A stretch of DNA of 64,000 bases from a virus: positions 16,015 to 80,014 of IMG/VR virus record IMGVR_UViG_3300043397_000067. The stretch is one strand, 5' to 3'. Shown here in pieces: positions 4,885-64,000 of this stretch. The first letter of the stretch is position 1. Each line of letters starts with the position of its first letter. The notes beneath the pieces were generated by a model. The model had not been told where the DNA came from. It saw only the letters and a list, made by a program, of their open reading frames with translations, and searched no databases. The translations under genes were made by a program, and so were the position numbers.

Positions 4885-4960
4885 GGGACGGTAGCATAAC
4901 GGTTAGTGCCGTGACCTCATAAGTCATAAGGTGTAGGTTCAACTCCTATCCGTCCCACCA
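4885..4960 (+). tRNA. tRNA with CAU anticodon (elongator Met or Ile2)
   Basis: Full cloverleaf: acceptor GGGACGG/CCGTCCC, D stem GCAT/GTGC, anticodon arm GTGAC-CTCATAA-GTCAT, T arm GTAGG-TTCAACT-CCTAT, encoded CCA; 76 nt. Confidence 0.92.
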
Positions 4961-43948: not shown

Positions 43949-44341
43949 TTATGCTTGTGGGAATTCCCACGTAATGAGTGCGGCATTATCGCCTACACCC
44001 GCTGAAAACGTATCATTCACGGACTTTACTACTTCTCCAAAATCCTGAACGTACAACACAATGCCTGATTCTACGTGGTAAACAACAGCGCTACGCGCCG
44101 CTATGTTTGAATTTTTCCACTGCGCGTTAATGTTTCCACCAAGGTCTATAGCGCCCTCTCTTTGCACTACTTCCATAGCGCCTACGGATTTACCGCCAGT
44201 AGCGTAACCAGTTGTAGCACCAGCGGCTACTTCTCCACTGGAGCTATAAACTTCTCCAGTGAACATATCAGAATACAGAGCAATCTTTAGCTCTGTATTT
44301 TGGTAATCTCCACTAATATACCCAGCAAGCAGCTTAATCAT
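43949..44341 (-). CDS. virion structural protein, paralog of 43505-43936
   Basis: LKIALY...EVAAG..GYATGG...W...I.A..A..Y...DFG shared with its neighbour. Confidence 0.55.
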   Translation of the reverse strand: MIKLLAGYISGDYQNTELKIALYSDMFTGEVYSSSGEVAAGATTGYATGGKSVGAMEVVQREGAIDLGGNINAQWKNSNIAARSAVVYHVESGIVLYVQDFGEVVKSVNDTFSAGVGDNAALITWEFPQA

Positions 44342-46080
44342 TGCACAGCCTCTGCCGTAGTGGTTCCATCAGCGTTCTTTGTAAGAACCACTTTTCTGTT
44401 CACCGGCTGCTTACCCTGCTCAAGCACAAGGTTAAGCTCTATCGGCTGCATATCCACAGTAACTTGTACTGGCTTATTTGCAGAGCTTTGCATAGCAAAA
44501 GCCATATCCTGCACCGCTCTCATAGCACCCTCTGTTGCTTCTACCGCCCTGTCCGCGCTGGCGTGGGCACTGGACAGCATCTGCGCGGCAAGCTGCACAT
44601 CGGATTCAGCCTTCACGGGGCCTTTGGGAGCCGCTGGAGCCTTTGGCTTCAGGGTCTGGCCCATTGCACTGGTGTTGGAGTCTGGATTGCCTCCAGCCTG
44701 CCCAGCCGCGCCTTGACCTCGGAACATGGTGCCCGACTTTGGCGTGTAGCCGTCTGGTGGCAGGTTACCAGTCAGCGCTATACAAGCTTCTTCATCAGTC
44801 AAGAACCCAAGGCTTAGTAGGTCAAGGATGCGTGACTGCTCCATCGACTTATAAGCTTCAAGTTCTCGTGTCGGGCGTAGGTCAATCGGCTCATACTCAA
44901 ATTCTACATACGCATCTTGCCCCATGATGCGTACAGCAATAGTCATTGCACGGGAGTATATCTCATTGAGCTTAACCCGCAGCATATTCGCTTGCTTAAC
45001 ATACAGCATAGCTTCCGTAGAGCTAGCGTTCGATGTAGAGGCTTGGCCAAGGATAACCGGCAAGGTCTTTGCACCGCTACTCAGTTTCCCGTTCAGCACC
45101 TTCTGTATGCGCTCAATAATAGCGCTTGGGTCTTGCCCACCGTCGATGTATTTATAGTCTACTTGGTCGTAGCTAACAAACGCATCTTCTGGTGCAGCAC
45201 CGTTCACTACTGCTTGCACTTCCTGAATCAGTGCATTCTTGTACGCAGCGTACTTTTCAGGGTCGCCAAGGATATCAGGTGGCGTAAACTTCTTCACCGC
45301 TTCGCTATCAATAATAGCAGTCAAGCGCGGCAGCACAGCACGCTTCAAGGCTCTGCGTGTATCGTTGTTGAAGTCAATGTCTGCAAGGATAGGCTGTATA
45401 GCCGACTCCACGTATGAAGACGGGTACACCTCCGTTTGTAGCTGATCTACCGTAACATAAATAATGGTAGGCAAGTCCAGATCAATGTCTTCGCCACCGA
45501 TGCGCTGCTTAAGCTTGAAGCTGTTATCTTCTTCAAACATCACAAGTGTAGTAACACTGATTGGGTTAAGGCTAGCAGGAATCCTTGCCTTATCCAGCGC
45601 TACTTCCAAACAGCTAGCACCATCAAGAATCAACTCAAGGCCAAGCGCTTCGCTCAAGCTTTGCAAGCCCATCTGTGCGCCAAACGTACCATCTACGTTT
45701 CCAAGGTAGGTCATGCGGCGTAGCAACTCGTGTGCAAGCTTCGTAGCGTCTACGCTAATCTTGCCATCCATATCCCTTGCAGTCAGCTTAAACTTCTCGG
45801 GAATACCGGTACGCATCAAGAATGATACTGCGCTACTAAGGTCTGGGCTACTCTTGCTCAGCTCTCGCAGCACCTTCTGCGTATTAGACTGTGACCTTGC
45901 CGATACCAGTCTATCAGTATTAGCAAGGTTTCTATCAGTCTTTGGTGACGCACTTGTACGTACCGCAGTTTGTGTTCTATAGCCTGGCAGACCTTGAGGA
46001 CCCTTAGGAGCCTTAGGTATAGGCATTGGAGGCAGCAATGCCGCCTCAAACTTATTCATCAGGGTGTCTAGGAGTTTCAT
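44338..46080 (-). CDS. portal protein
   Basis: 580 aa directly after terL; helical; C-terminal LSLGFLTDEEA motif typical of portals. Confidence 0.75.
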   Translation of the reverse strand: MKLLDTLMNKFEAALLPPMPIPKAPKGPQGLPGYRTQTAVRTSASPKTDRNLANTDRLVSARSQSNTQKVLRELSKSSPDLSSAVSFLMRTGIPEKFKLTARDMDGKISVDATKLAHELLRRMTYLGNVDGTFGAQMGLQSLSEALGLELILDGASCLEVALDKARIPASLNPISVTTLVMFEEDNSFKLKQRIGGEDIDLDLPTIIYVTVDQLQTEVYPSSYVESAIQPILADIDFNNDTRRALKRAVLPRLTAIIDSEAVKKFTPPDILGDPEKYAAYKNALIQEVQAVVNGAAPEDAFVSYDQVDYKYIDGGQDPSAIIERIQKVLNGKLSSGAKTLPVILGQASTSNASSTEAMLYVKQANMLRVKLNEIYSRAMTIAVRIMGQDAYVEFEYEPIDLRPTRELEAYKSMEQSRILDLLSLGFLTDEEACIALTGNLPPDGYTPKSGTMFRGQGAAGQAGGNPDSNTSAMGQTLKPKAPAAPKGPVKAESDVQLAAQMLSSAHASADRAVEATEGAMRAVQDMAFAMQSSANKPVQVTVDMQPIELNLVLEQGKQPVNRKVVLTKNADGTTTAEAVQ

Positions 46081-46119: not shown

Positions 46120-47808
46120 TTACGAGTATTCCTTGGGCCTAAACGCTACCAAAAGTGGAGTTCTCCCCGGTTCCGTCCACCCACTTACAGTGCCTAGCAG
46201 GGTAGTAGCAAGGAACATGTACATCAGTGAGAAGAAGTAGTGATCTTGCCCATCAGTCTTCTGCCAACTGAAAACAAGTTCATCATTTTGGAATATCTTA
46301 GTGCGCTTCAAGCTCAAGTAGTGCTCTTGCAGCACACCATCATCTGCTCCCTTTGAGATAAATATCTTATTTTCCTTGAATATCTCAAGCAGCTTATCAA
46401 ATGCAGCAGTACGGTTAATCTTTAGCAAGCGCAAGTTGAGCTTACCCTCTTCTGCATCCTCGTCTTTATCAGCCACAGTGTACATCTGCGGATTCTTGGA
46501 TGTTGTAAACACTGCACCATAAGCATTAGTATCTACTTCGCAGACTGACATAATCTCAGAAACATAAGGTTGTACGTCATGAACTGAGATAACTACCCGG
46601 TATTGGCGTATAAGCTCAAGGCGTCTTTCCCTGAACTTTGATAGTGGCACCATCTCTCTATGCACTACAAGCAACAAGCCTTCGTTAGACAGCCTGCCGA
46701 TAGTCACAGCGCACAGTAAGCCCATGTCAAAGCCCATGAAATGTATAGCACTGCTAGACAAATCCGCTTGTACAAGTGCCTTGCTTATATCCGCTGCCGT
46801 CAACTGCTCATTAGTATCTTCGCTTGTCTCACCTAATACCTGATTTTGCCACTCTGCTCTTGTATTGAACTCCGTACTTGTTCGTACCAAATACGCTGGC
46901 ACAAGCAAGCGGCAAGCAGTGACCGGTGTAACGTAGTGCGTATGTGCTTCATAGTTATCATCTGGGTTTTCTACTACCCACTCAAGTTTTGTAGGGTCAA
47001 GTTGTGGGTCGCGCCTGCAAGCAGGGCACATCCAGTGGGCTTTTTGCCACTGATAGTCCTTGATGTTGTATTTCGTTAACCCTTTAAGGTCATCATAGTA
47101 GCCCGGAATCACAATATCTGTATGGTAACTTGGCAACCACTTATGGCCACAGCAGTTGCATATACCCATGTGGCGTATGCGCTTTGAAGTCTCTGCTTCC
47201 TTAGAAATTCCCACACCTTCTTGTGTAGGAGTACTAAACTGCCTGATAATCTGGTGCTTAGAGGCTTGCAAGCGGCTTCTGAACTGCTTCAAGGTGTCCG
47301 GGTCACATCGGTCTATCTCGTCGGCTACAAGGCAGTCTGCGCTGATAGACAAGGCTGCAGTTTCTGATCTAGTTCCGCGAATAAACAAGAAATTGCCGTT
47401 GATTTCCTTTAACTCTGTAGAGTCTACATTGACGTTTAGCAAGCGCTTAAGGTCAGGACTACCGTAAAGTATGGGATTTACTTTGGTAATTGTCAGTTTT
47501 GTTGCATCATTGGTCGATGGCAAGGCATAAATAACGTTAAACTGTTTTTGTGTAGCAAGGGCAGATAGAAAGTAGCAGATTGTGCTGACAGTCAAGCCGA
47601 TTTGTGCTGGTTTGACTGTGTTCGTTACGCGTGAATCGTCATTAAGAATGGCTCGCTGGAACTCATAACCACCCGTAAAAGACAGCTTTTTGCTCTCTAA
47701 AATGATGTGTTTTTCTGCATAACTTGCTAAATTGTGCAGGTGAAATACGTTATTTAGGCCGTCTTCTATGCGTTTATAGTGGTCATTTAGCACTTCCTGC
47801 CCTTTCAA
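46120..47808 (-). CDS. terL: terminase large subunit (lambda gpA-like ATPase)
   Basis: KPAQIGLT, VADEIDR, FSTPT motifs; CxxC zinc motifs; nuclease GFDMG and DH. Start position uncertain. Confidence 0.9.
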   Translation of the reverse strand: MKGQEVLNDHYKRIEDGLNNVFHLHNLASYAEKHIILESKKLSFTGGYEFQRAILNDDSRVTNTVKPAQIGLTVSTICYFLSALATQKQFNVIYALPSTNDATKLTITKVNPILYGSPDLKRLLNVNVDSTELKEINGNFLFIRGTRSETAALSISADCLVADEIDRCDPDTLKQFRSRLQASKHQIIRQFSTPTQEGVGISKEAETSKRIRHMGICNCCGHKWLPSYHTDIVIPGYYDDLKGLTKYNIKDYQWQKAHWMCPACRRDPQLDPTKLEWVVENPDDNYEAHTHYVTPVTACRLLVPAYLVRTSTEFNTRAEWQNQVLGETSEDTNEQLTAADISKALVQADLSSSAIHFMGFDMGLLCAVTIGRLSNEGLLLVVHREMVPLSKFRERRLELIRQYRVVISVHDVQPYVSEIMSVCEVDTNAYGAVFTTSKNPQMYTVADKDEDAEEGKLNLRLLKINRTAAFDKLLEIFKENKIFISKGADDGVLQEHYLSLKRTKIFQNDELVFSWQKTDGQDHYFFSLMYMFLATTLLGTVSGWTEPGRTPLLVAFRPKEYS

Positions 47809-48154
47809 GTGCTGCTTTATATGCTAACAAGAACTCTTCATGTATAGCTGCATGTGGCTTCAAGGTTTCTAGCAGTACATCTTCAATGATTCTCAAGCGC
47901 CCAGCGTTGTATATATCCGTTTGCTGTTTAGTGATGCTAGCAAGGATAGAAGTAATGGTGTTTAGGGTCTGCGCTTTTTGGTTTAGCGGTGTTTCTGGAT
48001 CGTGCATAACCTCGGATATCAAGGTTTCTGCTCTGTTGTATTGCTTTAGTAGCTCAGTTTCAAGGTTTAGCTCGTTAAAGCTGGTAACCAAGTGTACTTT
48101 TGGTATAACCCTTGGAGTTTCTGGTACGTCGCCTTCAAAATCAATTAGACTCAT
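47783..48154 (-). CDS. probable terminase small subunit
   Basis: Helical 123 aa overlapping the terL start. Confidence 0.55.
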   Translation of the reverse strand: MSLIDFEGDVPETPRVIPKVHLVTSFNELNLETELLKQYNRAETLISEVMHDPETPLNQKAQTLNTITSILASITKQQTDIYNAGRLRIIEDVLLETLKPHAAIHEEFLLAYKAALERAGSAK

Positions 48155-48497
48155 TATCTATCTCCCTTACTTTGTTTACTGCGCGCATCATGGTGTTGTA
48201 GCTTACAAAGGCTATTTTTGCAGCTTGTGATATGCTGTACTTTCCCTTTATTACTTCCCGACCAAGCTCTAATTTCAAGGCTTTACGCGCTTCAATTAAG
48301 GGCTTTTTATTGAATATGGGTTGCTTGCCGGGAAAGACTGAGGATACGTATTTCTCATGCACTCCAAGCTGCTTGGCAAGTTCCCTAGTCGTTATTCTGC
48401 GCTCCCAGAGGTCTTGTCTTTGCTGTTCCGTCGTGCGCGAGGCTACGGTGTCAGGTCGCTTTGGGTTGGCTTTGGGCCATGTCACAGGATATGTCAT
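48141..48497 (-). CDS. basic tandem-HTH DNA-binding protein
   Basis: TTRELAKQLGVHEKYVS and SISQAAKIAFVSYNTM helix-turn-helix patterns. Confidence 0.65.
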   Translation of the reverse strand: MTYPVTWPKANPKRPDTVASRTTEQQRQDLWERRITTRELAKQLGVHEKYVSSVFPGKQPIFNKKPLIEARKALKLELGREVIKGKYSISQAAKIAFVSYNTMMRAVNKVREIDNESN

Positions 48498-48607
48498 TTT
48501 CGGATTGTGCCATAGAATTTTTGGTTTGTGTCGTGTAGGTGTGCATATGTATGTGTTTATAAAAGTTTTAAAATATATTTTGCATTTTTTTGAGGGCTGG
48601 TATGCCG

Positions 48608-48664
48608 CTGTCCACAACTTATCCACAATGTGTATACGTCCAGCTGTGGATAACTTGTGGATAT
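48608..48664. promoter_or_regulatory. cluster of five DnaA boxes
   Basis: CTGTCCACA 48608, TTATCCACA 48619 (perfect), TGTGTATAC 48629, TGTGGATAA 48645 (perfect, reverse), TGTGGATAT 48656. Confidence 0.75.
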
Positions 48665-48842
48665 CATATTAGGGTAAACCCCTATTCCCTAAACGCCGAT
48701 TCTATGTTAGTCGCGCGCCTAGGTGTTAACCCCTAGCACACAATCTGCACCTTGTATATAGGGGTTTGCCCTATGGTGTCCGGACTGTAGTCGTGAGAAT
48801 ATATGGGTGTCGGTTGATCGTAACCGGTGGCCCTAGGGCCGT

Positions 48843-48854
48843 GATCATTAACAA
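48843..48854 (+). promoter_or_regulatory. boxA-like antitermination element
   Basis: GATCATTAACAA directly after the GGCCCTAGGGCC hairpin; a second copy lies at 49549. Confidence 0.4.
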
Positions 48855-48951
48855 ATCAGACGGTTAAGCACTCCCCGCGCGGCCCCCGCGCTGGGTGTGG
48901 GGAGTGCTCAAAATTCACCCAGCGCGGGAAACCTTTATAGGAAACCCCACC

Positions 48952-49485
48952 ATGCAAACCACAAAATCTATCGCCCTATCTTTTCTCTCTGCAAAACAGC
49001 TGCAAGCGGCCGCAAACTTGGCGGAAATGTCCAGCACTGAACTGACCCTCACGGCCACGGCGGGCCGTGGCGCGGCCCGTAAAGTAGCGGCCCAAATTGT
49101 CGCCGACAATTCATTAGGCGAAGTGCTCGCCCAGTATGAAGCATCCAAATGTTCACGCCCCGAACCGCTGGCCCGGTATGTCCGGGCCTACGTGGGTCAG
49201 TATGAAAGCACGGATAAGCTGCAGGTTTGCCCGTTCAACCGGGCTGGCTTTGAAGCTTACCCACATGCGCTGCAAAGCTGGGCGCTGTCCAGCGAAAACG
49301 AAAAAACGCAGTCGGCCCGGTTGAAAGTGGCCGCGCATGTTGAAAGCGTCGTAAAGCTTGCCGCGCAAGCCTATGACAACATGAAAGCGCAGGAAGCTGC
49401 AGCGCAGGAAGCTGCAGCGCAGGAAGCTGCAGCGCAGGAAGCTGCAGCGCAGGAAGCTGCAGCGCAGGAAGCTGCAACAGCTTGA
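48952..49485 (+). CDS. first early gene, hypothetical with (AQEAA)6 tail
   Basis: AGGAAA RBS; Ala-rich ORF. Confidence 0.6.
   Translation: MQTTKSIALSFLSAKQLQAAANLAEMSSTELTLTATAGRGAARKVAAQIVADNSLGEVLAQYEASKCSRPEPLARYVRAYVGQYESTDKLQVCPFNRAGFEAYPHALQSWALSSENEKTQSARLKVAAHVESVVKLAAQAYDNMKAQEAAAQEAAAQEAAAQEAAAQEAAAQEAATA
49387..49476 (+). repeat. perfect tandem repeat 6 x 15 bp
   Basis: GCGCAGGAAGCTGCA x6. Confidence 0.97.
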
Positions 49486-49508
49486 AACCCGCCGGGCCGC
49501 TATCGGCC

Positions 49509-49549
49509 CGGTTTTCATAGCGGCCCACAGTGGGCCGCTATGAAAACCG
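49509..49549. repeat. 19-bp perfect inverted repeat
   Basis: CGGTTTTCATAGCGGCCCA-CAG-TGGGCCGCTATGAAAACCG. Confidence 0.9.
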
Positions 49550-49560
49550 ATCTTTAAAAA
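49549..49560 (+). promoter_or_regulatory. boxA-like antitermination element
   Basis: GATCTTTAAAAA directly after the long hairpin. Confidence 0.4.
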
Positions 49561-49657
49561 TTCAATGCAAGCTGAAAACCCGCCTTTAGTGGCAGGGATA
49601 AGCACGTCCGGGCCTTAGGTGGTCGCCGGGCGGAAAAGTACACTACGGGAAACCCTA

Positions 49658-49717
49658 CGGGCCGCACCTTAACCGGGCCGCTAGTGACTAACCGGGCCGC
49701 ACCTTAACCGGGCCGCT
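49658..49717 (+). repeat. direct repeats, 4 x CGGGCCGC (25-bp unit duplicated)
   Basis: CGGGCCGCACCTTAACCGGGCCGCT at 49658 and 49693. Confidence 0.9.
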
Positions 49718-50624
49718 CAAATTGTCACACGTAGGGCATACTGGTACAGAATACCGCATTGATGCACACACCGACAACAAACCCTTACGGGGTTGCGCTG
49801 CCGCATGCCTTAAGCGCATGCCTTGCGGCTGTTGTCACAATCCCTTATAGTTGAGTGAACCAAAAGACAATGACATAGAATTTTCTACATCTGAGAATGT
49901 AGGGTTAGCGGGCTAGATTAGCGGCGCGACACGGTGAAAATACGGACTTTCATTTTACAATGTCATATACTGTTGACGCATAGCTGTGAAGCTATACCCC
50001 ATAAATCAGAATAACGGATTAGGGCCTATTTGCGGCCCTAGGCGCGTTGCGTTATAGCCACGCCGTCGAAAAAGTTGTCTAGTAGCTCCTGAGAGTAGGT
50101 GCGTCTGGCTTTGCGTCATTGCGGGCTGGGCTTTCGGTATGTATAGACTCCCTCCCACGTTGTAGACCTTTGCGGAATGCCTCCGCTATAGGTGGGCGTG
50201 GTTACAGTTTATATTGCAGATAGGGTAGGGATGCGAAGCGGACTTAGCAAATACGGCATAGTGACAGTGTGCCTCATGTTGCGGGAACTCATTAAGTCAA
50301 AATCCCGTTCTAGTGGTCGGATAGAGTAGACCAACGCTTATCAGTCTTGCGGAATAGACTTAACCTTAACCCTTAACGCCTTTGCGGAGGGTCTCCGATA
50401 CACGGACGGCCCTCCAGCTCGGCGTTAACGCCCCACGTTGGCGCAAAATTACGATCAAGCGTGAAAAACGCTGCAACCTTCTAGGCCTTCAATGGCTTTG
50501 CGGTATGTCTGCCCTTTGCGGTAGAGCAAACCATCATGCCCACTCTTGTAGTGGGCATTTTAGTTTGTGGGTCTTGCCCTGATACTAAAGGGATTACGGC
50601 TATTTGCCGACTTACGGATTTATC

Positions 50625-50828
50625 ATGTCAGTATCAAGTATCGCTCATTCCATCGCAGCCGTCTGGAATGGGTCAGCACTCCAGACAGAGTGCTTTTATA
50701 CCGGTATTCGGGCAGATATTGCCCATTCCTTGCGGATTGCCCCTAACAGGGCGGACTTCAATGCAGCTTTCGATCTGCTTTCGTGGTATCAGTCCGGTGA
50801 CGGACTGCTTTACTGCACCCTAGATTAA
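50625..50828 (+). CDS. hypothetical protein (67 aa)
   Basis: ATG after a weak GGA; lies between hairpin elements. Confidence 0.4.
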   Translation: MSVSSIAHSIAAVWNGSALQTECFYTGIRADIAHSLRIAPNRADFNAAFDLLSWYQSGDGLLYCTLD

Positions 50829-50874
50829 CAGGGTCTTGCACGTTCCCTTTAATGTGCTATTGATAGGAGTTGCC

Positions 50875-51087
50875 ATGTTGCAACAAAGATTGGACCGGAT
50901 TAACACCCGGATTGTGGAAATCACTCCGGCCTTGTCTAAGGCTTGGGAAGACATGGTAGCCGCTAAGGCTGACCGTGACCCAACGCACCCGCTGTACAAG
51001 GCGTGGAAGGCTATCGACCTCAAGGACAGCCAGCTGCGTGAAACGCGCTCTGATCTTGAGTTCGAGCTTGAGTGCTTGGAAGACTGA
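50875..51087 (+). CDS. small helical early protein ending CLED
   Basis: AGGAG RBS. Confidence 0.65.
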   Translation: MLQQRLDRINTRIVEITPALSKAWEDMVAAKADRDPTHPLYKAWKAIDLKDSQLRETRSDLEFELECLED

Positions 51088-51395
51088 CAGGGCCAGTTAC
51101 ATAGCAGCGCGCTGCTATGTTGCGGGTATTGTTGCCCTAACTTGAAAGGAAGTGTTATGAAACACCAAGACATTATCAAGGCTGTCAAGGCACAGCACTT
51201 GCTTGAGTGTGCCAAGCTCAACATGCTCGACTATAACAAGTTGAGTCTTATCATTGCTATTGCTTGCAATATTGCGGCAGATGTGACGCAACTGCGTCAG
51301 CTTTCGTTGTTCTTGCAGTGCTTGGAAGACTGACAGGGCCAGTAATAGGGCATATGCCCTATTGCGGGGATTGTCCCTAACTTGAGAGGAATATC
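51071..51395 (+). repeat. duplicated intergenic cassette boundary
   Basis: 27-bp AGTGCTTGGAAGACTGACAGGGCCAGT at 51071 and 51317, each followed by a perfect palindrome and CCCTAACTTGARAGGAA. Confidence 0.9.
51157..51333 (+). CDS. small early protein ending CLED
   Basis: AAGGAAG RBS. Confidence 0.6.
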   Translation: MKHQDIIKAVKAQHLLECAKLNMLDYNKLSLIIAIACNIAADVTQLRQLSLFLQCLED

Positions 51396-51542
51396 ATGAG
51401 AATTCTTATGTCTGTTATCGGAGTCGTAGCCATTCCTATGGCTTCGCTTGGGTCTTTGTTCAGCGTTATGACGCTGGCTGAGTGCGGTCTGCTGCTGACC
51501 ATCGCAGTCTTTTGCTGCTGTTTCGGAACGATTGGAGACTGA
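51396..51542 (+). CDS. small membrane protein (48 aa; not in ORF track)
   Basis: GAGGA RBS; MRILMSVIGVVAIPM... two hydrophobic helices. Confidence 0.55.
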   Translation: MRILMSVIGVVAIPMASLGSLFSVMTLAECGLLLTIAVFCCCFGTIGD

Positions 51543-51545
51543 GCC

Positions 51546-51830
51546 ATGAAACCATTTGAAATACGTGCCAAGCTCAAGGAAATGGGCTTCAAGGAAGACC
51601 GCTACGGCAACATGCTTACCCCCAAAGGTAAGTACCGCATACACTTCAACTCTATCTCTTTGCGGGTAGAGAAGAAGCGCCAATGGGTAGACCATTTCAC
51701 GCAGAAAACCCAATCCGACTGGCAAAACCTGCGTACCGTCTACTACACCAACACTGTCATCCAAGACGGTGTGCTGCGTCTGGGCACTCTCGAACTCAAG
51801 GATTATGCTGCTACTGCTGTGGCTGCTTAG
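51546..51830 (+). CDS. hypothetical protein
   Basis: GGAG RBS; 94 aa, basic. Confidence 0.65.
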   Translation: MKPFEIRAKLKEMGFKEDRYGNMLTPKGKYRIHFNSISLRVEKKRQWVDHFTQKTQSDWQNLRTVYYTNTVIQDGVLRLGTLELKDYAATAVAA

Positions 51831-52226
51831 CCTAGACACAACGCATACATTGCGTCCTGTATGGAAGGTGCTTACTACACCCACCTTCCATAACATACAT
51901 CAGCACAGATTTTCGGTGTCTGTTAGCTGAGAGAATACAACCAGAGTACAGGGCTTGCCGGTTTACGCGACGGCAAGCCCGCTTTCGTTTGGGTCCTCAG
52001 GGTCTCAAACGAAAACTAACCAGTTCGTACATTTTGCCGCGCACGTAAGATCGTCAGCACACTGATTATCCAAATTTGCGGATTCTGCACGGCCTTAAGC
52101 AAGTTCCGTGCCAGCAAAGTTTCGCGCAAAAATTTCTAATTTGCAGATTTTTGCAAATCTAGCCCTTCCCGTGCATACTTTTGCATATTTGTTACAATTT
52201 TCCCTAACCATAATGGTGGTATTTTT

Positions 52227-52412
52227 ATGTCCTTCGATAACGAAGACCGTGCATTAGCAAGGTCTTTAGCTCAGGCTGCTGGTACTAACAAGTCAAGAGC
52301 CGCTAACGCTAAAAGACGCACAATCAAGAAAGCAGCCCAACGTATAGGCTTTCTGCCCAAGCAGCCCAATATGCGTACACTGCAACGCATCTTCTTTCAC
52401 TTTGCGGAGTAA
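52227..52412 (+). CDS. small basic protein
   Basis: Follows CATAAT/GGTGG; K/R-rich. Confidence 0.5.
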   Translation: MSFDNEDRALARSLAQAAGTNKSRAANAKRRTIKKAAQRIGFLPKQPNMRTLQRIFFHFAE

Positions 52413-52414
52413 CC

Positions 52415-52603
52415 ATGCGCCTCATTCGCACCCTCTCAAACGATAAAGCCGAAGTCAAAATCTACAAAGACGACGGCGAATTCGTATGCAAGTTGACTGG
52501 TAACCCTGCTGCCGGCTACTTCACTGATGACTGGCAAGATGCAGAGGGCACTGCCAAGCACATGCTGGCCGCACAGGAAATCAAGCTCTGTAAAGCGCAT
52601 TAA
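52415..52603 (+). CDS. hypothetical protein (YFTDD..DA..TA motif)
   Basis: GGAG RBS; recurrent small phage protein motif. Confidence 0.6.
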   Translation: MRLIRTLSNDKAEVKIYKDDGEFVCKLTGNPAAGYFTDDWQDAEGTAKHMLAAQEIKLCKAH

Positions 52604-52955
52604 ACTCTCTGGTATTTGCGGAAAGACTAGCGCCTACAAGTGCTAGCCAAAGGCACTCCCTCTACCTGTGCCTTACACAACCCACAAGCCAGAACAAACC
52701 GCCTACCAAGTGTTTTGCGGTCTTTCCCTCTTCCAGAAAAAGAACTAGAAGAGTAAATAATAAAAATAACAGAATAATTCTATATAATACCTTCTGAGAT
52801 TCTAGTTATTTTTACGGGCGGTCGTAGCAGCTTTTTTTTTGAGTCCAAAATTTTTTACATTTTGTACCCTCAAACCCGTCCCCGTAAATATATCCAGAAA
52901 TCCTGACTGTTCTATCCAGAGTTCAGAACTTTAATAGCTCCAAGTAGGAAATAAT

Positions 52956-53777
52956 ATGGAAAAAGCCCGCTTGTATAACCGACAAGTCGCTACGGTAGGT
53001 ACAATAGTTAAGAACTACCACATCCGGGAGAAGCTTCCACAGAAAGACATATCGGGGTGCAGAGTGCTGCGCCTTGAGTGTGAGTTCTGCAAGGCCCAGC
53101 TAAAATTGAGCTTGTACGAGCTTTTGCGGAGAAAGAGCATCTGCATATGCAGAAAGCAAGACGCCGAGCCAAAGGCAACCACGACCATAGTCCTTGCCCT
53201 GCCGCAAAGCCGCTTGCACTCTTTCAAGCTTGACTACAGGATAAGCCTTGAAAACCGCCTGCAACGTATGCTGCAAAAGACCACAACCCTGAAAGACATA
53301 GGCTACGAGAACATCACAGTCTATGAGATCGTGGGAGACTTGCTGAGAAAAATAGGCAACTTGAAGGACATACTTGAAGCGCCACCAATAAAAAAGCCGG
53401 GAAGGCCGAGAAAGAATCCCGTTCTTATATCCGAACCCGACACAGGCATCAAAGAACTTGAGGTTCAGCCACCACCGCTACCCCAAGAGCCAGAACCACC
53501 AAAAGAAGAACTATCTTGGCCGTCCTTCCTACTTGAAGACCCAGCGGACTATATCTGGTTCACGGCCCAAGCCCCACAAAACCGCTTCCCTCCAAAGTAC
53601 ATCACCGACTGGGTGGAAGAAGCAAACTACGACCCCAAGACCTCAAAGCTGTTTTCCGTAGCCACAGAAGAAGGCCTAAGGGTCCACTACAAGACCTTGC
53701 CAAGAGAAGAAGCGCCAGCAGTATCCTCAAGGATGCCCACTTGGAGCTTTGATGATGACGACGATACCCCATTTTAA
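52956..53777 (+). CDS. Zn-ribbon / AT-hook protein with SSB-like acidic tail
   Basis: CEFC...CIC, KKPGRPRK, C-terminus FDDDDDTPF. Confidence 0.6.
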   Translation: MEKARLYNRQVATVGTIVKNYHIREKLPQKDISGCRVLRLECEFCKAQLKLSLYELLRRKSICICRKQDAEPKATTTIVLALPQSRLHSFKLDYRISLENRLQRMLQKTTTLKDIGYENITVYEIVGDLLRKIGNLKDILEAPPIKKPGRPRKNPVLISEPDTGIKELEVQPPPLPQEPEPPKEELSWPSFLLEDPADYIWFTAQAPQNRFPPKYITDWVEEANYDPKTSKLFSVATEEGLRVHYKTLPREEAPAVSSRMPTWSFDDDDDTPF

Positions 53778-62771: not shown

Positions 62772-62789
62772 CTTGAAAGGATGTACATC

Positions 62790-64000
62790 ATGTACGAGAA
62801 ACTCGGTGACAAAATCACCTCAGTTGAGGCGCTTGCAGAAGCGCTTCACATACAAAAGCACCAGATACCAGACCTTGTTCTGATGCCCCCTAGAAACGGG
62901 GTGATAAGTAGCTCACCGAAGAAGTGGTGGGCTTACCGTGAGCAAGTACGGCTGAACATGAATGTTTACTACCAAACATCTGTGCTTGAGTCGCTGAATA
63001 AGCAACTGGGTATATACGCTCACGTTTCCAAGGAAGACCCGGAAATGGTGGCCTATACGCCGGATAACCAAGCAGGTGAGCAAGACCGCCAGCTGCGTAC
63101 CACACTTGGCAAGCTCATTACCAAGTACTACCCATCCATCAAGGACGAGGCGGTAAACGACTTCGTATCGACTCATAAGTCAGAGCTGTCAGATGAAATC
63201 TTCTGGCTTGACGGTGACGATATTGCCAACATCGGCTACGGTCCTGATAGCGTAGGGTCCTGCATGTCAACCAGCTACAACAACCGTGAGAGCATTATGA
63301 GAGCTACTGGTGGGCTGGCACCAGCGCTGGTCTATTCGATGCCCAACATTCGGATGGCTGTTCTGTACGACAAAGACGGCAAGATTAATGCTCGGTCATT
63401 GGTACGGGAAGACAAGAAGCAGTACATCCGTGTTTACGGTGACGCACTGCTTACCAAGCGACTCGCACGTAACGGCTACAGCCTTGGGGACTGGCAGGGT
63501 ATTGAGTTGAAGGCCATCCCAACAGGCAGTGACTACCTTATGTCCTACCTTGACGGCATGAACGCAGCAGGAAACAGGGAAAACGCAAGTGTTGCCATGC
63601 TCGATGACAAGTTGGTCGTTCTTACAAGGGAACAGGTAGCTGCATACTACACAAGGTTTCATAGCAACCCTTCCACTGGGATTACAACGGCTGGTAAAGT
63701 CAAGCCGTCGGTGGTCAACTCAATCGACTTTATTGTTACCGACGGCCTCACTGGTCAGACGTATAACCTGCTGGCGGAGACAGTACAGTTTAGGAACTAC
63801 ACTGTAGTTCGTAATGATGTGATAGATAATGTCAGCACTGCGTCAGACATGACCATCTACCCCCTGTGCATGGCTTACGGAAGAACCGTCTACTGTATGG
63901 ACGGTAATGAACTTGTGGACTATGCAGGAAACAAGTACTACAACACGGAGAAAAACCTTGTACAGTACAGCTTGGTACGTCTCGATGCAGAGTTGTACCC
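62790..64000 (+). CDS. paralog of 61011-62771 (3' truncated; not in ORF track)
   Basis: MYEKLGDKITS...HVSKEDPEMVAYTPD...TLGK...SCM...IRMA...LVREDKKQYIRVYG aligns by eye with the upstream gene. Confidence 0.8.
   Translation, partial: MYEKLGDKITSVEALAEALHIQKHQIPDLVLMPPRNGVISSSPKKWWAYREQVRLNMNVYYQTSVLESLNKQLGIYAHVSKEDPEMVAYTPDNQAGEQDRQLRTTLGKLITKYYPSIKDEAVNDFVSTHKSELSDEIFWLDGDDIANIGYGPDSVGSCMSTSYNNRESIMRATGGLAPALVYSMPNIRMAVLYDKDGKINARSLVREDKKQYIRVYGDALLTKRLARNGYSLGDWQGIELKAIPTGSDYLMSYLDGMNAAGNRENASVAMLDDKLVVLTREQVAAYYTRFHSNPSTGITTAGKVKPSVVNSIDFIVTDGLTGQTYNLLAETVQFRNYTVVRNDVIDNVSTASDMTIYPLCMAYGRTVYCMDGNELVDYAGNKYYNTEKNLVQYSLVRLDAELY

Follow-up and report, generated by a model that had tools for sequence, protein, structure and literature searches.

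The DNA between the packaging genes and the early genes of this phage is a mosaic of separately exchangeable modules, mostly ordinary and swappable, and the sole element of the region kept across lineages is an array of TTGCGG hexamers, a signal that is unexplained. In anatomical terms this is very probably the region of early control and early genes in an uncultured siphophage from fresh water (genome size ~79.5 kb), and we are confident that it lies between a leftward packaging and structural operon on one side and a rightward early and replication arm on the other. The modules are an AT-rich divergent promoter zone, optional DnaA boxes and three AACCCCTA sites, followed by a probable early promoter whose leader is specific to the strain, a first early gene that is hypervariable, terminators formed by palindromes, 1.14 kb of untranslated DNA and small-gene cassettes that can be swapped.

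Organisation of the region

The window, which is the whole stretch of DNA analysed (64,000 nucleotides), covers bases 16015-80014 of a record totalling 80,014 b, and the analysis was carried out on assembled contigs. The first and last 527 b of the record overlap with 91% identity; the overlap lies in an ORF that becomes intact (640 aa) on circularisation, and the record is therefore regarded as a circular assembly with arbitrary ends, which do not confirm the probable genome end placed here by the initial annotation. The features discussed below are as follows.

44338-46080, portal gene
46120-47808, TerL gene
48141..48497, minus strand, gene for a 118-aa double-HTH protein (weak match to Pfam HTH_23, and PHROG regulator families)
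48500..48600 (core 48540-48600), no strand, AT-rich tract between the divergent operons, ~80% AT
48609..48664, no strand, DnaA-box cluster, two box pairs in a 17-nt inverted repeat with a 17-nt spacer
48670..48773, no strand, three AACCCCTA sites (48677, 48728, 48759), two direct and one inverted, 3 of the 5 genomic copies
48780..48830, plus strand, segment ending in GAGAATATAT, conserved in the closest relatives (L001-L003)
48830..48950, plus strand, strain-specific 5' leader insert with a boxA-like 13-mer (48842-48854) and a hairpin (48885-48928)
48952..49485, plus strand, first early gene, 177 aa
49494..49717, plus strand, GGGCCGC-rich palindromes 3' of the first gene (hairpin, perfect palindrome, direct repeats)
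49486..50624, plus strand, 1.14-kb untranslated stretch with no credible ORF
49823..53129, plus strand (that of the early genes), array of 19 TTGCGG hexamers, densest at 50030-50521 and thinning into the small genes
50536..50567, plus strand, canonical intrinsic terminator (-19.6 kcal/mol, z -3.7, T run after)
50625..52603, plus strand, seven small early ORFs with AGGA/GGAG ribosome-binding sites (50625-50828, 50875-51087, 51157-51333, 51396-51542, 51546-51830, 52227-52412, 52415-52603)
51951..52015, plus strand, double hairpin after the 94-aa ORF (-38.6 kcal/mol, z -5.6)
52730..52955, plus strand, AT-rich stretch (GC 0.37-0.43), promoter-like in sequence and putatively so in function
52956-53777, 273-aa gene downstream of that stretch

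The left border is formed by the HTH gene, the first of the leftward packaging and structural operon; judging from its sequence it probably encodes the small terminase (TerS-like), and an HTH gene next to TerL is conserved in relatives. TerL itself belongs to the lambda GpA family and is unrelated to the TerL of T5-like phages.

The initial annotation had described a succession of distinct motif zones and suggested that they act as one integrated non-coding device. The zones are real, occur where they had been placed and are far from chance expectation; however, ~46% of the region consists of genes, with about 2.1 of 4.6 kb coding (the 177-aa gene, the seven small ORFs and the start of the 52956 gene). 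An integrated device is not supported by the closest relatives, which are ~92% identical in DNA (99% in TerL protein) and nevertheless have neither DnaA boxes nor the hairpin/boxA segment. Entirely different sequences stand in place of the first gene and of the cassettes, and the hexamer array alone is kept. Conservation of the zone order, a check that the annotation had proposed, is seen for the overall layout but not for the individual modules, which are replaced. In L008, L026 and partly L001 the packaging genes are likewise followed by an AT-rich tract, in some cases DnaA boxes or iterons, a first early gene, terminators with palindromes, ~1 kb without translation that carries a TTGCGG array, and small genes. 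The early proteins encoded from 48.5-57.7 kb have no homologue in the early regions of relatives, and early genes show complete turnover between relatives.

A mosaic of exchangeable modules

The AT-rich tract is almost invariant in the closest relatives, and is partly replaced in one metagenome strain, where 83 other letters stand instead of 48530-48594. Beside it lie the only two perfect TTATCCACA of the 80-kb genome, at 48619 (+) and 48645 (-); a further box, at 48656, has 1 mismatch, and others are weaker. Both the AT-rich tract and the DnaA-box cluster are borne out as described. The arms of the inverted repeat are 48611-48627 and 48645-48661, and the boxes within a pair are separated by a 2-bp gap. 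The cluster is absent from L001-L003. Next to the packaging genes of distant relatives such clusters are sporadic: comparable ones occupy the same slot in L065, L083 (five TTATGCACA), L088 and L091, others lie further upstream in L057/58/60, and L075 has true tandem iterons (21-bp tandem repeats). The boxes may be a facultative add-on that would bring the host's DnaA to the zone of the divergent promoter or origin.

The sites first noted as GGG-W-CCC palindromes are the three AACCCCTA copies; their zone, which also has an imperfect 41-nt inverted repeat, is largely conserved in L001-L003. The three copies are candidate sites for a protein, be it the regulator of an operator or, as in cosB, a terminase. 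The equivalent of 48780..48830 directly precedes the ribosome-binding site of the first gene in L001-L003, and this segment, which received no score in the sigma-70 scan, is probably the early promoter of the first gene. The leader insert that follows it here is absent from those relatives. Of the hairpin and boxA proposed for this leader, the hairpin is strong (-37.8 kcal/mol, z -2.8), but the boxA does not stand out, as the match at 48842 has 2 mismatches and the consensus occurs in the window at chance level (25 matches vs 23.7 expected).

The first early gene is a real gene, with 14 HMMER homologues (22-39% identity) and an AlphaFold model, predicted to be all-helical, of pLDDT 88.7. Its product ends in an AQEAA repeat (x6-7), encoded by a 15-bp tandem repeat at 49386-49476, and has no match in Pfam, PHROG or a fold search; unrelated Ala-rich genes are found in its place in relatives. 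The reported GGCC repeats are confirmed, with 11 of the 22 genomic GGGCCGC copies lying within 48879-50032. The module 3' of the gene includes a 41-nt perfect palindrome at 49509-49549 (-46 kcal/mol, z -6.7) and two 25-nt direct repeats at 49658-49717; L001 has an analogous palindrome built on GGCCGCC, and the sequence suggests a probable terminator or protein-binding module.

The 1.14-kb untranslated stretch is ~95% identical in a contig of metagenome run X3, where both flanks are swapped, and does not resemble the corresponding DNA in relatives that are more distant. Production of a large RNA had been suggested as one option. A large structured RNA is not upheld: the fold excess is the same on both strands (z -2.6 on the plus strand, -2.9 on the minus strand), there is no conservation of sequence or of strand-specific structure, and no Rfam family matches, an RsmW-like match reaching 31.5 bits against a threshold of 52 and lying outside the TTGCGG array. 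The intrinsic terminator near its end is directly 3' of the dense part of the array.

Among the small ORFs a single PHROG match was obtained (phrog_7884). The proposed mini-gene cassettes are present as small genes bounded by a repeat (copies at 51071-51106 and 51317-51352) with variable palindromes, the borders extending over 51071-51130 and 51317-51376. At these junctions the inner palindrome varies and the outer stem, TTGCGG included, is kept. In the run X3 contig the cassette at 50869-51085 is swapped for 510 other letters.

The TTGCGG array and its possible readers

The reported array is amply supported by counts: 19 of the 38 plus-strand copies of TTGCGG in the genome fall in 49823-53124, where 1.2 are expected (P about 1e-16); the opposite strand has one or two there, depending on the bounds chosen. 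The copies have no flanking consensus, are irregularly spaced and, inside ORFs, fall in different reading frames. L004/L008, L026, L028, L034 and L005 have this array too, again on the early-gene strand and in the equivalent slot, 1.5-4.6 kb upstream of TerL. The hexamer is the top strand-specific 6-mer in L008 (18:0), where the array occupies a unique place in the genome, and in L026 (19:2), and it is enriched in L028, L034 and L005. It has been kept in at least five lineages although the DNA of the slot cannot be aligned with the window. When L026 and L028 are compared, with totals of 11 and 12 copies, 6 occur in both, 5 in L026 alone and 6 in L028 alone; single copies turn over, but their number is maintained. 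Some lineages of equal relatedness, e.g. L029/L030 and L058-L060, have a weak array or none, and the type of HTH (TerS-like) protein does not track the presence of the array.

We infer from these observations that the array is a polar cis-acting DNA signal, whose reader is shared by the phages or their hosts and is not a fast-evolving early-region protein. Action on DNA over RNA is supported by three copies in a single gene, the opposite-strand Rha gene of L008, within which they hold their polarity. Our preferred reading, put forward tentatively, is a Chi-like signal for a host end-processing enzyme, the likeliest reader being a RecBCD- or AddAB-type helicase-nuclease. On this view the array would limit degradation and favour recombination at the genome end beside the packaging site, which is probably the first to enter the cell; because TerL is in the lambda GpA family, cos or pac would conventionally be expected next to the TerS gene. 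The array would thereby resemble in its action the Chi sites of LLS, MD8 and P1, which are co-oriented and clustered near the cos-proximal end. Several points weigh against a Chi-like signal. If the end is beside TerS, the word on the 3'-ending strand is CCGCAA, which is not G-rich as known Chi is, and to our knowledge neither TTGCGG nor CCGCAA is a published Chi sequence. The phage has an SbcCD-like nuclease and a resolvase of Holliday junctions, in contrast to the LLS class, which is Rec-less, and the lineages in which the array is absent or weak are equally related.

Moreover all copies of the array lie on the sense strand of the early transcript, which would be explained equally well by a reading at the RNA level. 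Such a reading, possible though doubtful, holds that UUGCGG repeats in the early leader and mRNAs bind an RNA-binding factor, which could titrate a host regulator (as CsrB and RsmZ do with CsrA), cause processive antitermination or affect how mRNA is stabilised or processed. Several copies stand 13-37 nt upstream of start codons, the hexamer is the 3' side of the conserved outer stem at the cassette junctions, and the dense block (50030-50521) is placed between promoter-like sites at 49823-49961 and the terminator at 50536-50567, which would define an untranslated transcript of ~0.6-0.7 kb with about 8 TTGCGG copies. The pairing probability of TTGCGG equals that of composition-matched hexamers, which therefore gives it no special RNA context, and no conserved structure or sequence surrounds it; the lack of an Rfam match, the equal fold excess on both strands and the polarity kept in the opposite-strand L008 gene likewise argue against an RNA. 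That TTGCGG might serve as a -35-like box, which would make the array a series of early promoters, is barely credible. Host RNA polymerase would be used, since no phage sigma factor was found in the genome, and the first three copies in the window are followed exactly 17 nt on by TATAGT, TATAGC and TATAGA; however, 93 copies in seven phages have no -10-like element at any fixed spacing (at N17 it occurs in 3 of the 93, all within the window) and the sigma-70 scan gave 6 promoters vs 4.8 expected, which is no excess.

Likeness to known systems

A packaging signal made of small-terminase sites, comparable to the hexamers in P1 pac or to the R sites in lambda cosB, is very unlikely. On the circular map the array lies upstream of the TerS-like gene, repeated hexamers are used in P1 pac, and contigs of many relatives end 2-4 kb upstream of TerL; these breaks, however, are explained by tandem repeats and 127-nt assembler overlaps. 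The array is 3.3 kb long, far more than any known pac or cos site, and starts at a distance of 1.3 kb from the TerS-like gene. Array-sharing phages differ widely in both HTH motifs of the TerS-like protein, and the AACCCCTA triplet adjoining the gene of this protein is the better candidate. An origin of replication is unlikely as well, in which the AT-rich tract and the DnaA boxes would form a host-DnaA-dependent origin and TTGCGG would provide iteron-like sites for a phage initiator, perhaps the primase/helicase or the Zn-ribbon/AT-hook protein encoded just downstream. As in bacterial oriC-type and plasmid-type origins, a consensus DnaA-box cluster (4-5 boxes) lies directly beside an 80%-AT tract, clusters or tandem iterons recur in this slot in L065, L083, L088 and L075, and the cumulative GC-skew minimum is nearby, at about 54.6 kb. 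This likeness is one of sequence, and the skew is confounded by the switch in gene direction. The boxes here form one short inverted repeat, unlike in those origins, and are missing from ~92% identical relatives, and therefore cannot be essential; the phage encodes its own primase, helicase and polymerase, which is consistent with a phage initiator and also sets it apart from such origins. The array is at least 1.2 kb from the boxes with a gene in between, and its irregularly spaced copies show no helical phasing and reach 3 kb into genes.

The closest match in composition that had been proposed is the injection stop signal (iss) of T5, in repeat region 3 of the first-step-transfer DNA (annotation in NC_005859, analysis in bioRxiv 10.1101/866236). 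There the DnaA boxes are paired within inverted repeats and palindromes are numerous; small early ORFs adjoin 1.2 kb of untranslated DNA, in which GTGCAAATCCGAC occurs about nine times on one strand, irregularly spaced and with unrelated flanks. All of this has its counterpart here, including the pairing of the boxes inside an inverted repeat and more than 1 kb of untranslated DNA, and the comparison is apt as far as composition goes. Support does not extend to mechanism: staged entry, in which the inverted repeat and the array would halt ejection at the membrane until early proteins are made, is quite improbable, as no homologue of T5 A1 or A2 was found in the genome at E<=1, terminase and virion genes are unrelated, a long terminal repeat is not evident, and the DnaA model is a mere proposal for T5 itself. 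In addition, the repeat is a bare hexamer here and a 13-mer in T5, a gene separates DnaA boxes and array, and the boxes, dispensable in close relatives, are kept among T5-like phages.

Returning to the Chi-like signal, the array differs from the Chi clusters of LLS, MD8 and P1 in that TTGCGG is a hexamer and not an octamer, and is no known Chi sequence; it is densest in untranslated DNA, and the phage has some recombination genes. Co-oriented Chi sites are found near the right, cos-proximal end in LLS (20 of 23) and MD8 (32 of 32) (PMC12315714). Like these clusters, the array consists of a short bare word with nearly all copies on one strand, concentrated in a few kilobases adjoining the packaging site on the circular map, and its copies lie both in and between genes; density and not position appears to be selected.

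The phage and the make-up of the region

The source record, IMGVR_UViG_3300043397_000067, is a single viral record of 80,014 bases, of which the window covers bases 16015-80014. Its first and last 527 bases overlap at 91% identity inside an ORF (window 62781-64000 together with genome bases 1-527), and on circularisation one intact ORF of 640 aa runs across the joined ends. The record is thus a circular metagenome assembly, with an overlap that arose from two merged strain variants, and its ends are uninformative on the physical termini. The true genome length is about 79.5 kb.

The phage is long-tailed: its genome encodes a tape measure protein of 2231 aa and a major head protein, together with a replication and repair set comprising primase, helicase, family-A polymerase, SbcCD-like nuclease, Holliday-junction resolvase, ligase and RtcB; a search of the phage genome for a sigma-70-type factor found none. 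The rightward arm of about 45 kb carries the early and replication genes, and the region studied here (48500-53130) lies between this arm and the leftward packaging and structural operon. One tRNA-Met is also encoded along with the RtcB-type RNA ligase and the ATP-dependent DNA ligase (genome 5049-6278 and 13928-14887, the locus L101; window 4885-4960), and the pairing of RtcB with a tRNA hints at the countering of host tRNA-cleaving defences.

TerL is at most 30% identical to that of its cultured relatives, Vibrio phage SHOU24, Caulobacter phage Seuss and Acinetobacter phage Mystique. The public runs that contain the sequence are freshwater metagenomes, and metagenomes are rich in TerL homologues at 56-66% identity, so that the phage belongs to a large uncultured freshwater clade. 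The comparison drew on 90 related loci, taken from contigs of viral and metagenome origin. The DNA of the region gave no match among 50,697 phage records, and a search for the host through 185,579 bacterial and archaeal genomes found no relative.

Features of the packaging genes and the early region (window coordinates)
44338-46080, minus strand: portal
46120-47808, minus strand: large terminase TerL, lambda GpA-type
48141-48497, first gene of the leftward operon: double-HTH protein of 118 aa, probably the small terminase
48498-48951: untranslated
48952-49485: first early gene, 177 aa, 14 HMMER homologues
49486-50624: untranslated
50625-52603: seven small ORFs with ribosome-binding sites
51831-52226: untranslated
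52604-52955: untranslated

The initial annotation had described this region as a zoned, non-coding control region. Every motif class that it listed is indeed present and non-random, however the term non-coding does not hold, as about 46% of the interval is coding (the 177-aa gene and the seven small ORFs). Of the five AACCCCTA sites in the genome, three fall within 90 nt, half of the 22 copies of GGGCCGC lie inside 1.15 kb, and a perfect palindrome of 41 nt is found downstream of the first early gene. The AlphaFold model of the 177-aa protein is confident and all-helical, with a terminal long helix bearing AQEAA repeats; it matched no family and no known fold, and the first genes of the relatives show no detectable homology to it. 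One of the seven small ORFs matches a PHROG family of unknown function. The first larger gene past the array of TTGCGG hexamers is an ORFan of 273 aa (52956-53777), previously read as a protein with a Zn-ribbon/AT-hook and an acidic tail like that of SSB, for which no Pfam match, PHROG match or related locus was found. For the most part, the region has the usual architecture of a phage early region.

Exchange of modules among relatives

The three closest loci, L001-L003, have TerL proteins 99% identical to that of the window, and their DNA is about 92% identical to it up to approximately position 48800, beyond which divergence is complete. All three retain the AT-rich tract, the AACCCCTA sites and a segment resembling a promoter. 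Missing from them are both the DnaA-box cluster, at which about 60 nt have been exchanged, and a leader insert of 130 nt that holds a hairpin and a boxA-like 13-mer. Their first gene encodes an unrelated, longer Ala-rich repeat protein and is followed by palindromes built of GGCCGCC in place of GGGCCGC. In a public freshwater metagenome run with contigs of another strain (run X3), 49524-50869 is retained at about 95% identity, the contig match to the window is lost between about 48512 and 49524, 510 other letters replace the cassette at 50869-51085, and further cassettes are swapped. In a freshwater sample other than that of the record, small-gene cassettes were seen to be replaced or deleted precisely at repeat or hairpin borders (50869-51085, 51672-51718, 52094-52406 and 52862-53493), and the untranslated array stretch is still about 95% identical there despite the exchange.

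Among more distant relatives, the proteins of 48.5-57.7 kb have no homologue in the early regions. Because modules are lost, swapped or without homologues among relatives, the zones are separately exchangeable rather than parts of one co-inherited device. The earlier proposal of a single integrated device at the genome end is therefore only partly supported: the general layout recurs, but the zones are exchanged separately. The repeat set and its order are not conserved among relatives: the hexamer array and the general layout alone persist, and the DnaA boxes and the leader hairpin are already absent at about 92% DNA identity. The layout that recurs at 57-61% TerL identity consists of a TerS-like gene, an AT- or GT-rich tract, a first early gene, hairpin terminators, about 1 kb of untranslated DNA and small genes. 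Long tandem arrays also occur in the early untranslated zone of relatives, their units being of 12 bp (for example CCTCTGGCCGTG or GTGGCTCTGCCC), about 50 bp or 7 bp, and contigs end inside them (L001:1-190, L036:1-200, L065:1-150, L022:1-60).

Regarding the genome end, many contigs of relatives stop 2-4 kb upstream of TerL, within tandem repeats. As candidate termini these were rejected, being breaks at tandem repeats or 127-nt assembler overlaps, and assembler overlaps of 127 nt also account for the "direct terminal repeats" of two complete records. Contig depth (9-17x between unitigs) was of no use for recognising a collapsed terminal repeat. For a GpA-type terminase, the conventional guess places a cos or pac site next to the gene for TerS, and Seuss, the nearest cultured relative by TerL, has a predicted terminal repeat of 1,748 bp with TerL 5.5 kb from the left end. 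On the strength of this convention and of the Seuss repeat, a genome end within or next to the region is plausible.

The only two perfect TTATCCACA copies of the genome lie 26 nt apart and form, with two weaker boxes, a 17-nt inverted repeat whose arms (48611-48627 and 48645-48661) hold two boxes each, 2 bp apart. The region does have a cluster of consensus DnaA boxes beside an AT-rich element, as a DnaA-dependent replication origin would; the cluster is not, however, conserved as an essential element would be, since the boxes are absent from L001-L003 and patchy across the clade. Gene orientation confounds the GC-skew signal. Consensus boxes (TTWTNCACA) nevertheless occur again, in pairs or clusters, upstream of TerL in several further lineages. 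L065 carries two perfect boxes and a near-perfect one; in L083 there are five TTATGCACA DnaA-type boxes, spaced by about 12-56 bp, 1370-1490 bp upstream of TerL and adjoining the TerS-like gene; L088 has two 90-nt repeats with one perfect box in each; and L091 and L057/58/60 carry pairs or clusters as well. Over 1 Mb of loci the total of DnaA boxes is below expectation, and about 0.2 close pairs are expected by chance. In L075 the corresponding position, 1300-1520 bp upstream of TerL and adjoining the TerS-like gene, is occupied by 21-bp tandem iterons of the TTGCAAAAAGTTGCAGAAAAA type. Thus the slot beside the packaging genes repeatedly acquires DnaA-binding or iteron-like modules. DnaA-box clusters are a recurrent optional element, and the slot would fit a facultative origin or a DnaA-regulated divergent promoter rather than an indispensable part.

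The TTGCGG array

The array comprises TTGCGG hexamers on the early-gene (plus) strand at 49823-53129, densest at 50030-50521. Within these 3.3 kb are found 19 of the 38 plus-strand copies of the genome, where 1.2 are expected, with one or two copies on the other strand. The same word is the most enriched strand-specific 6-mer in two related loci, L008 (18:0) and L026 (19:2), and the early strand upstream of TerL carries 13 copies in L028, 10 in L034 and 8 in L005. All five of these arrays lie 1.5-4.6 kb upstream of TerL and have the strand of the early genes, and the array of the window is unique within its own genome as well as within the complete 78-kb genome behind L008. The DNA of the relatives' array stretches does not align with that of the window. 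The array is a clear example of a short, oriented word selected for its density across phages in which the surrounding DNA and the early genes have been fully replaced.

The copies have no flanking consensus and no fixed spacing, and those inside ORFs occupy different reading frames. Between the array regions of L026 and L028 (66% identity), 6 copies are common and 5 and 6 are private, for totals of 11 and 12, and copy number rather than position seems to be under selection. In L008, a Rha-family regulator gene (L008:5137-6012, plus strand), which lies in opposite orientation within the early region, holds three hexamers of array polarity; that these keep their polarity inside an opposite-strand gene hints weakly at a signal read on DNA. 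The base-pairing of TTGCGG equals that of composition-matched hexamers, and an association with hairpins was discarded as the lower folding energy near the motif vanishes against such hexamers. No convincing substitute hexamer arrays were found in lineages devoid of TTGCGG, the candidates being mostly tandem coding or iteron repeats, and a literature search on TTGCGG in phages found nothing relevant.

Two further observations concern the word elsewhere. About 1.4 kb upstream of TerL, L006 has a perfect tandem (TTGCGG)x7 (L006:1156-1197) on the strand opposite the early genes; this may be a coding repeat of the first gene of that phage. Counting TTGCGG with its complement, the 34-kb structural arm of the window (14092-48500) has 4 copies, where about 16 are expected by base composition (a rough estimate), and the replication arm of about 41 kb has 31; the scarcity in the structural arm could be avoidance or simply CpG depletion.

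The array is a robust, conserved and unexplained element of the region. Such arrays point to a trans-acting reader in this large freshwater phage clade, and the array offers a simple handle for finding it.

Readings of the array and known systems

Our preferred reading, a tentative one, is that the array would act like the co-oriented Chi clusters that adjoin a packaging site; after it follow the RNA-level, origin, T5-like, packaging-signal and promoter readings. For a packaging signal, the TerS-like protein would be the natural candidate reader, however its recognition helices vary widely among phages that share the array, which makes it unlikely in this role, and no link was found between the type of TerS-like protein and the presence of an array. 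As a sigma-70 promoter element the hexamer was rejected, since a -10 element lies 16-18 nt downstream of a putative -35 TTGCGG in only 3 of 93 copies. The RNA-level reading stays alive because promoter-like sites (49823-49961) and a canonical terminator (50536-50567) could bracket an untranslated transcript with about 8 UUGCGG. A large structured non-coding RNA such as GOLLD or ROOL is not supported, for want of an Rfam family, of conservation and of strand-specific folding: an Rfam search at permissive E-values gave nothing credible in the region, and the untranslated 1.14 kb has no sequence conservation beyond very close strains and no similarity to the equivalent stretches of relatives. Its excess of folding energy is modest and equal on the two strands (z of -2.6 on plus and -2.9 on minus), a pattern given by many local DNA palindromes. 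The boxA candidate of the rrn/lambda nut type, TGATCATTAACAA, matches at 11 of 13 positions, boxA matches across the window are at chance level (25 against 23.7 expected), and its segment is absent from close relatives.

Like the injection-stop region of T5, the region here has palindromes, a large untranslated stretch with repeats, and DnaA boxes that are paired within inverted repeats; in T5 the untranslated DNA spans 1.2 kb, over which a 13-mer is repeated about nine times on one strand at uneven intervals. A T5-type system would be expected to keep its repeat set and order among relatives, whereas here the DnaA boxes and the leader hairpin are absent from close relatives. Second-step transfer in T5 requires the proteins A1 and A2, and a sequence-level search of the phage's own genome with the two (from NC_005859) gave nothing at E<=1. 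Membership in the T5-type two-step injection (FST/iss) class fails on the two counts of A1/A2 homologues and DnaA-box conservation. The patchy, recurrent clusters beside packaging genes are independent examples for the question of why T5-like phages carry DnaA boxes.

For the Chi-like reading, numerous Chi sites of phages LLS, MD8 and P1 share one orientation and crowd towards the right, cos-proximal end (PMC12315714). A near-uniform orientation is found in the array too (19 against one or two; 18:0 in L008 and 19:2 in L026). Such clusters would lie next to a physical genome end; here the array adjoins TerS and TerL on the circular map. Phages of that type would lack their own Rec module and a RecBCD inhibitor; this phage has an SbcC/SbcD-like nuclease and a Holliday-junction resolvase, and a non-exhaustive scan of about 45 proteins found no annealing protein or Gam. 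If the reader is a host end-processing nuclease, the array would give the Chi word of an uncultured host. We think it unlikely that a general, undescribed strategy is at work, in which lytic phages load the DNA at the packaging site, probably the first to enter, with dozens of copies of a short polar word read by a DNA-end or translocating enzyme of the host; if true, the word would disclose the Chi-like or orienting sequence that uncultured freshwater hosts use, and hosts could be assigned to viral contigs by it. For a bare, one-strand word selected for density beside a packaging site, the Chi clusters of LLS, MD8 and P1 are the best functional precedent.
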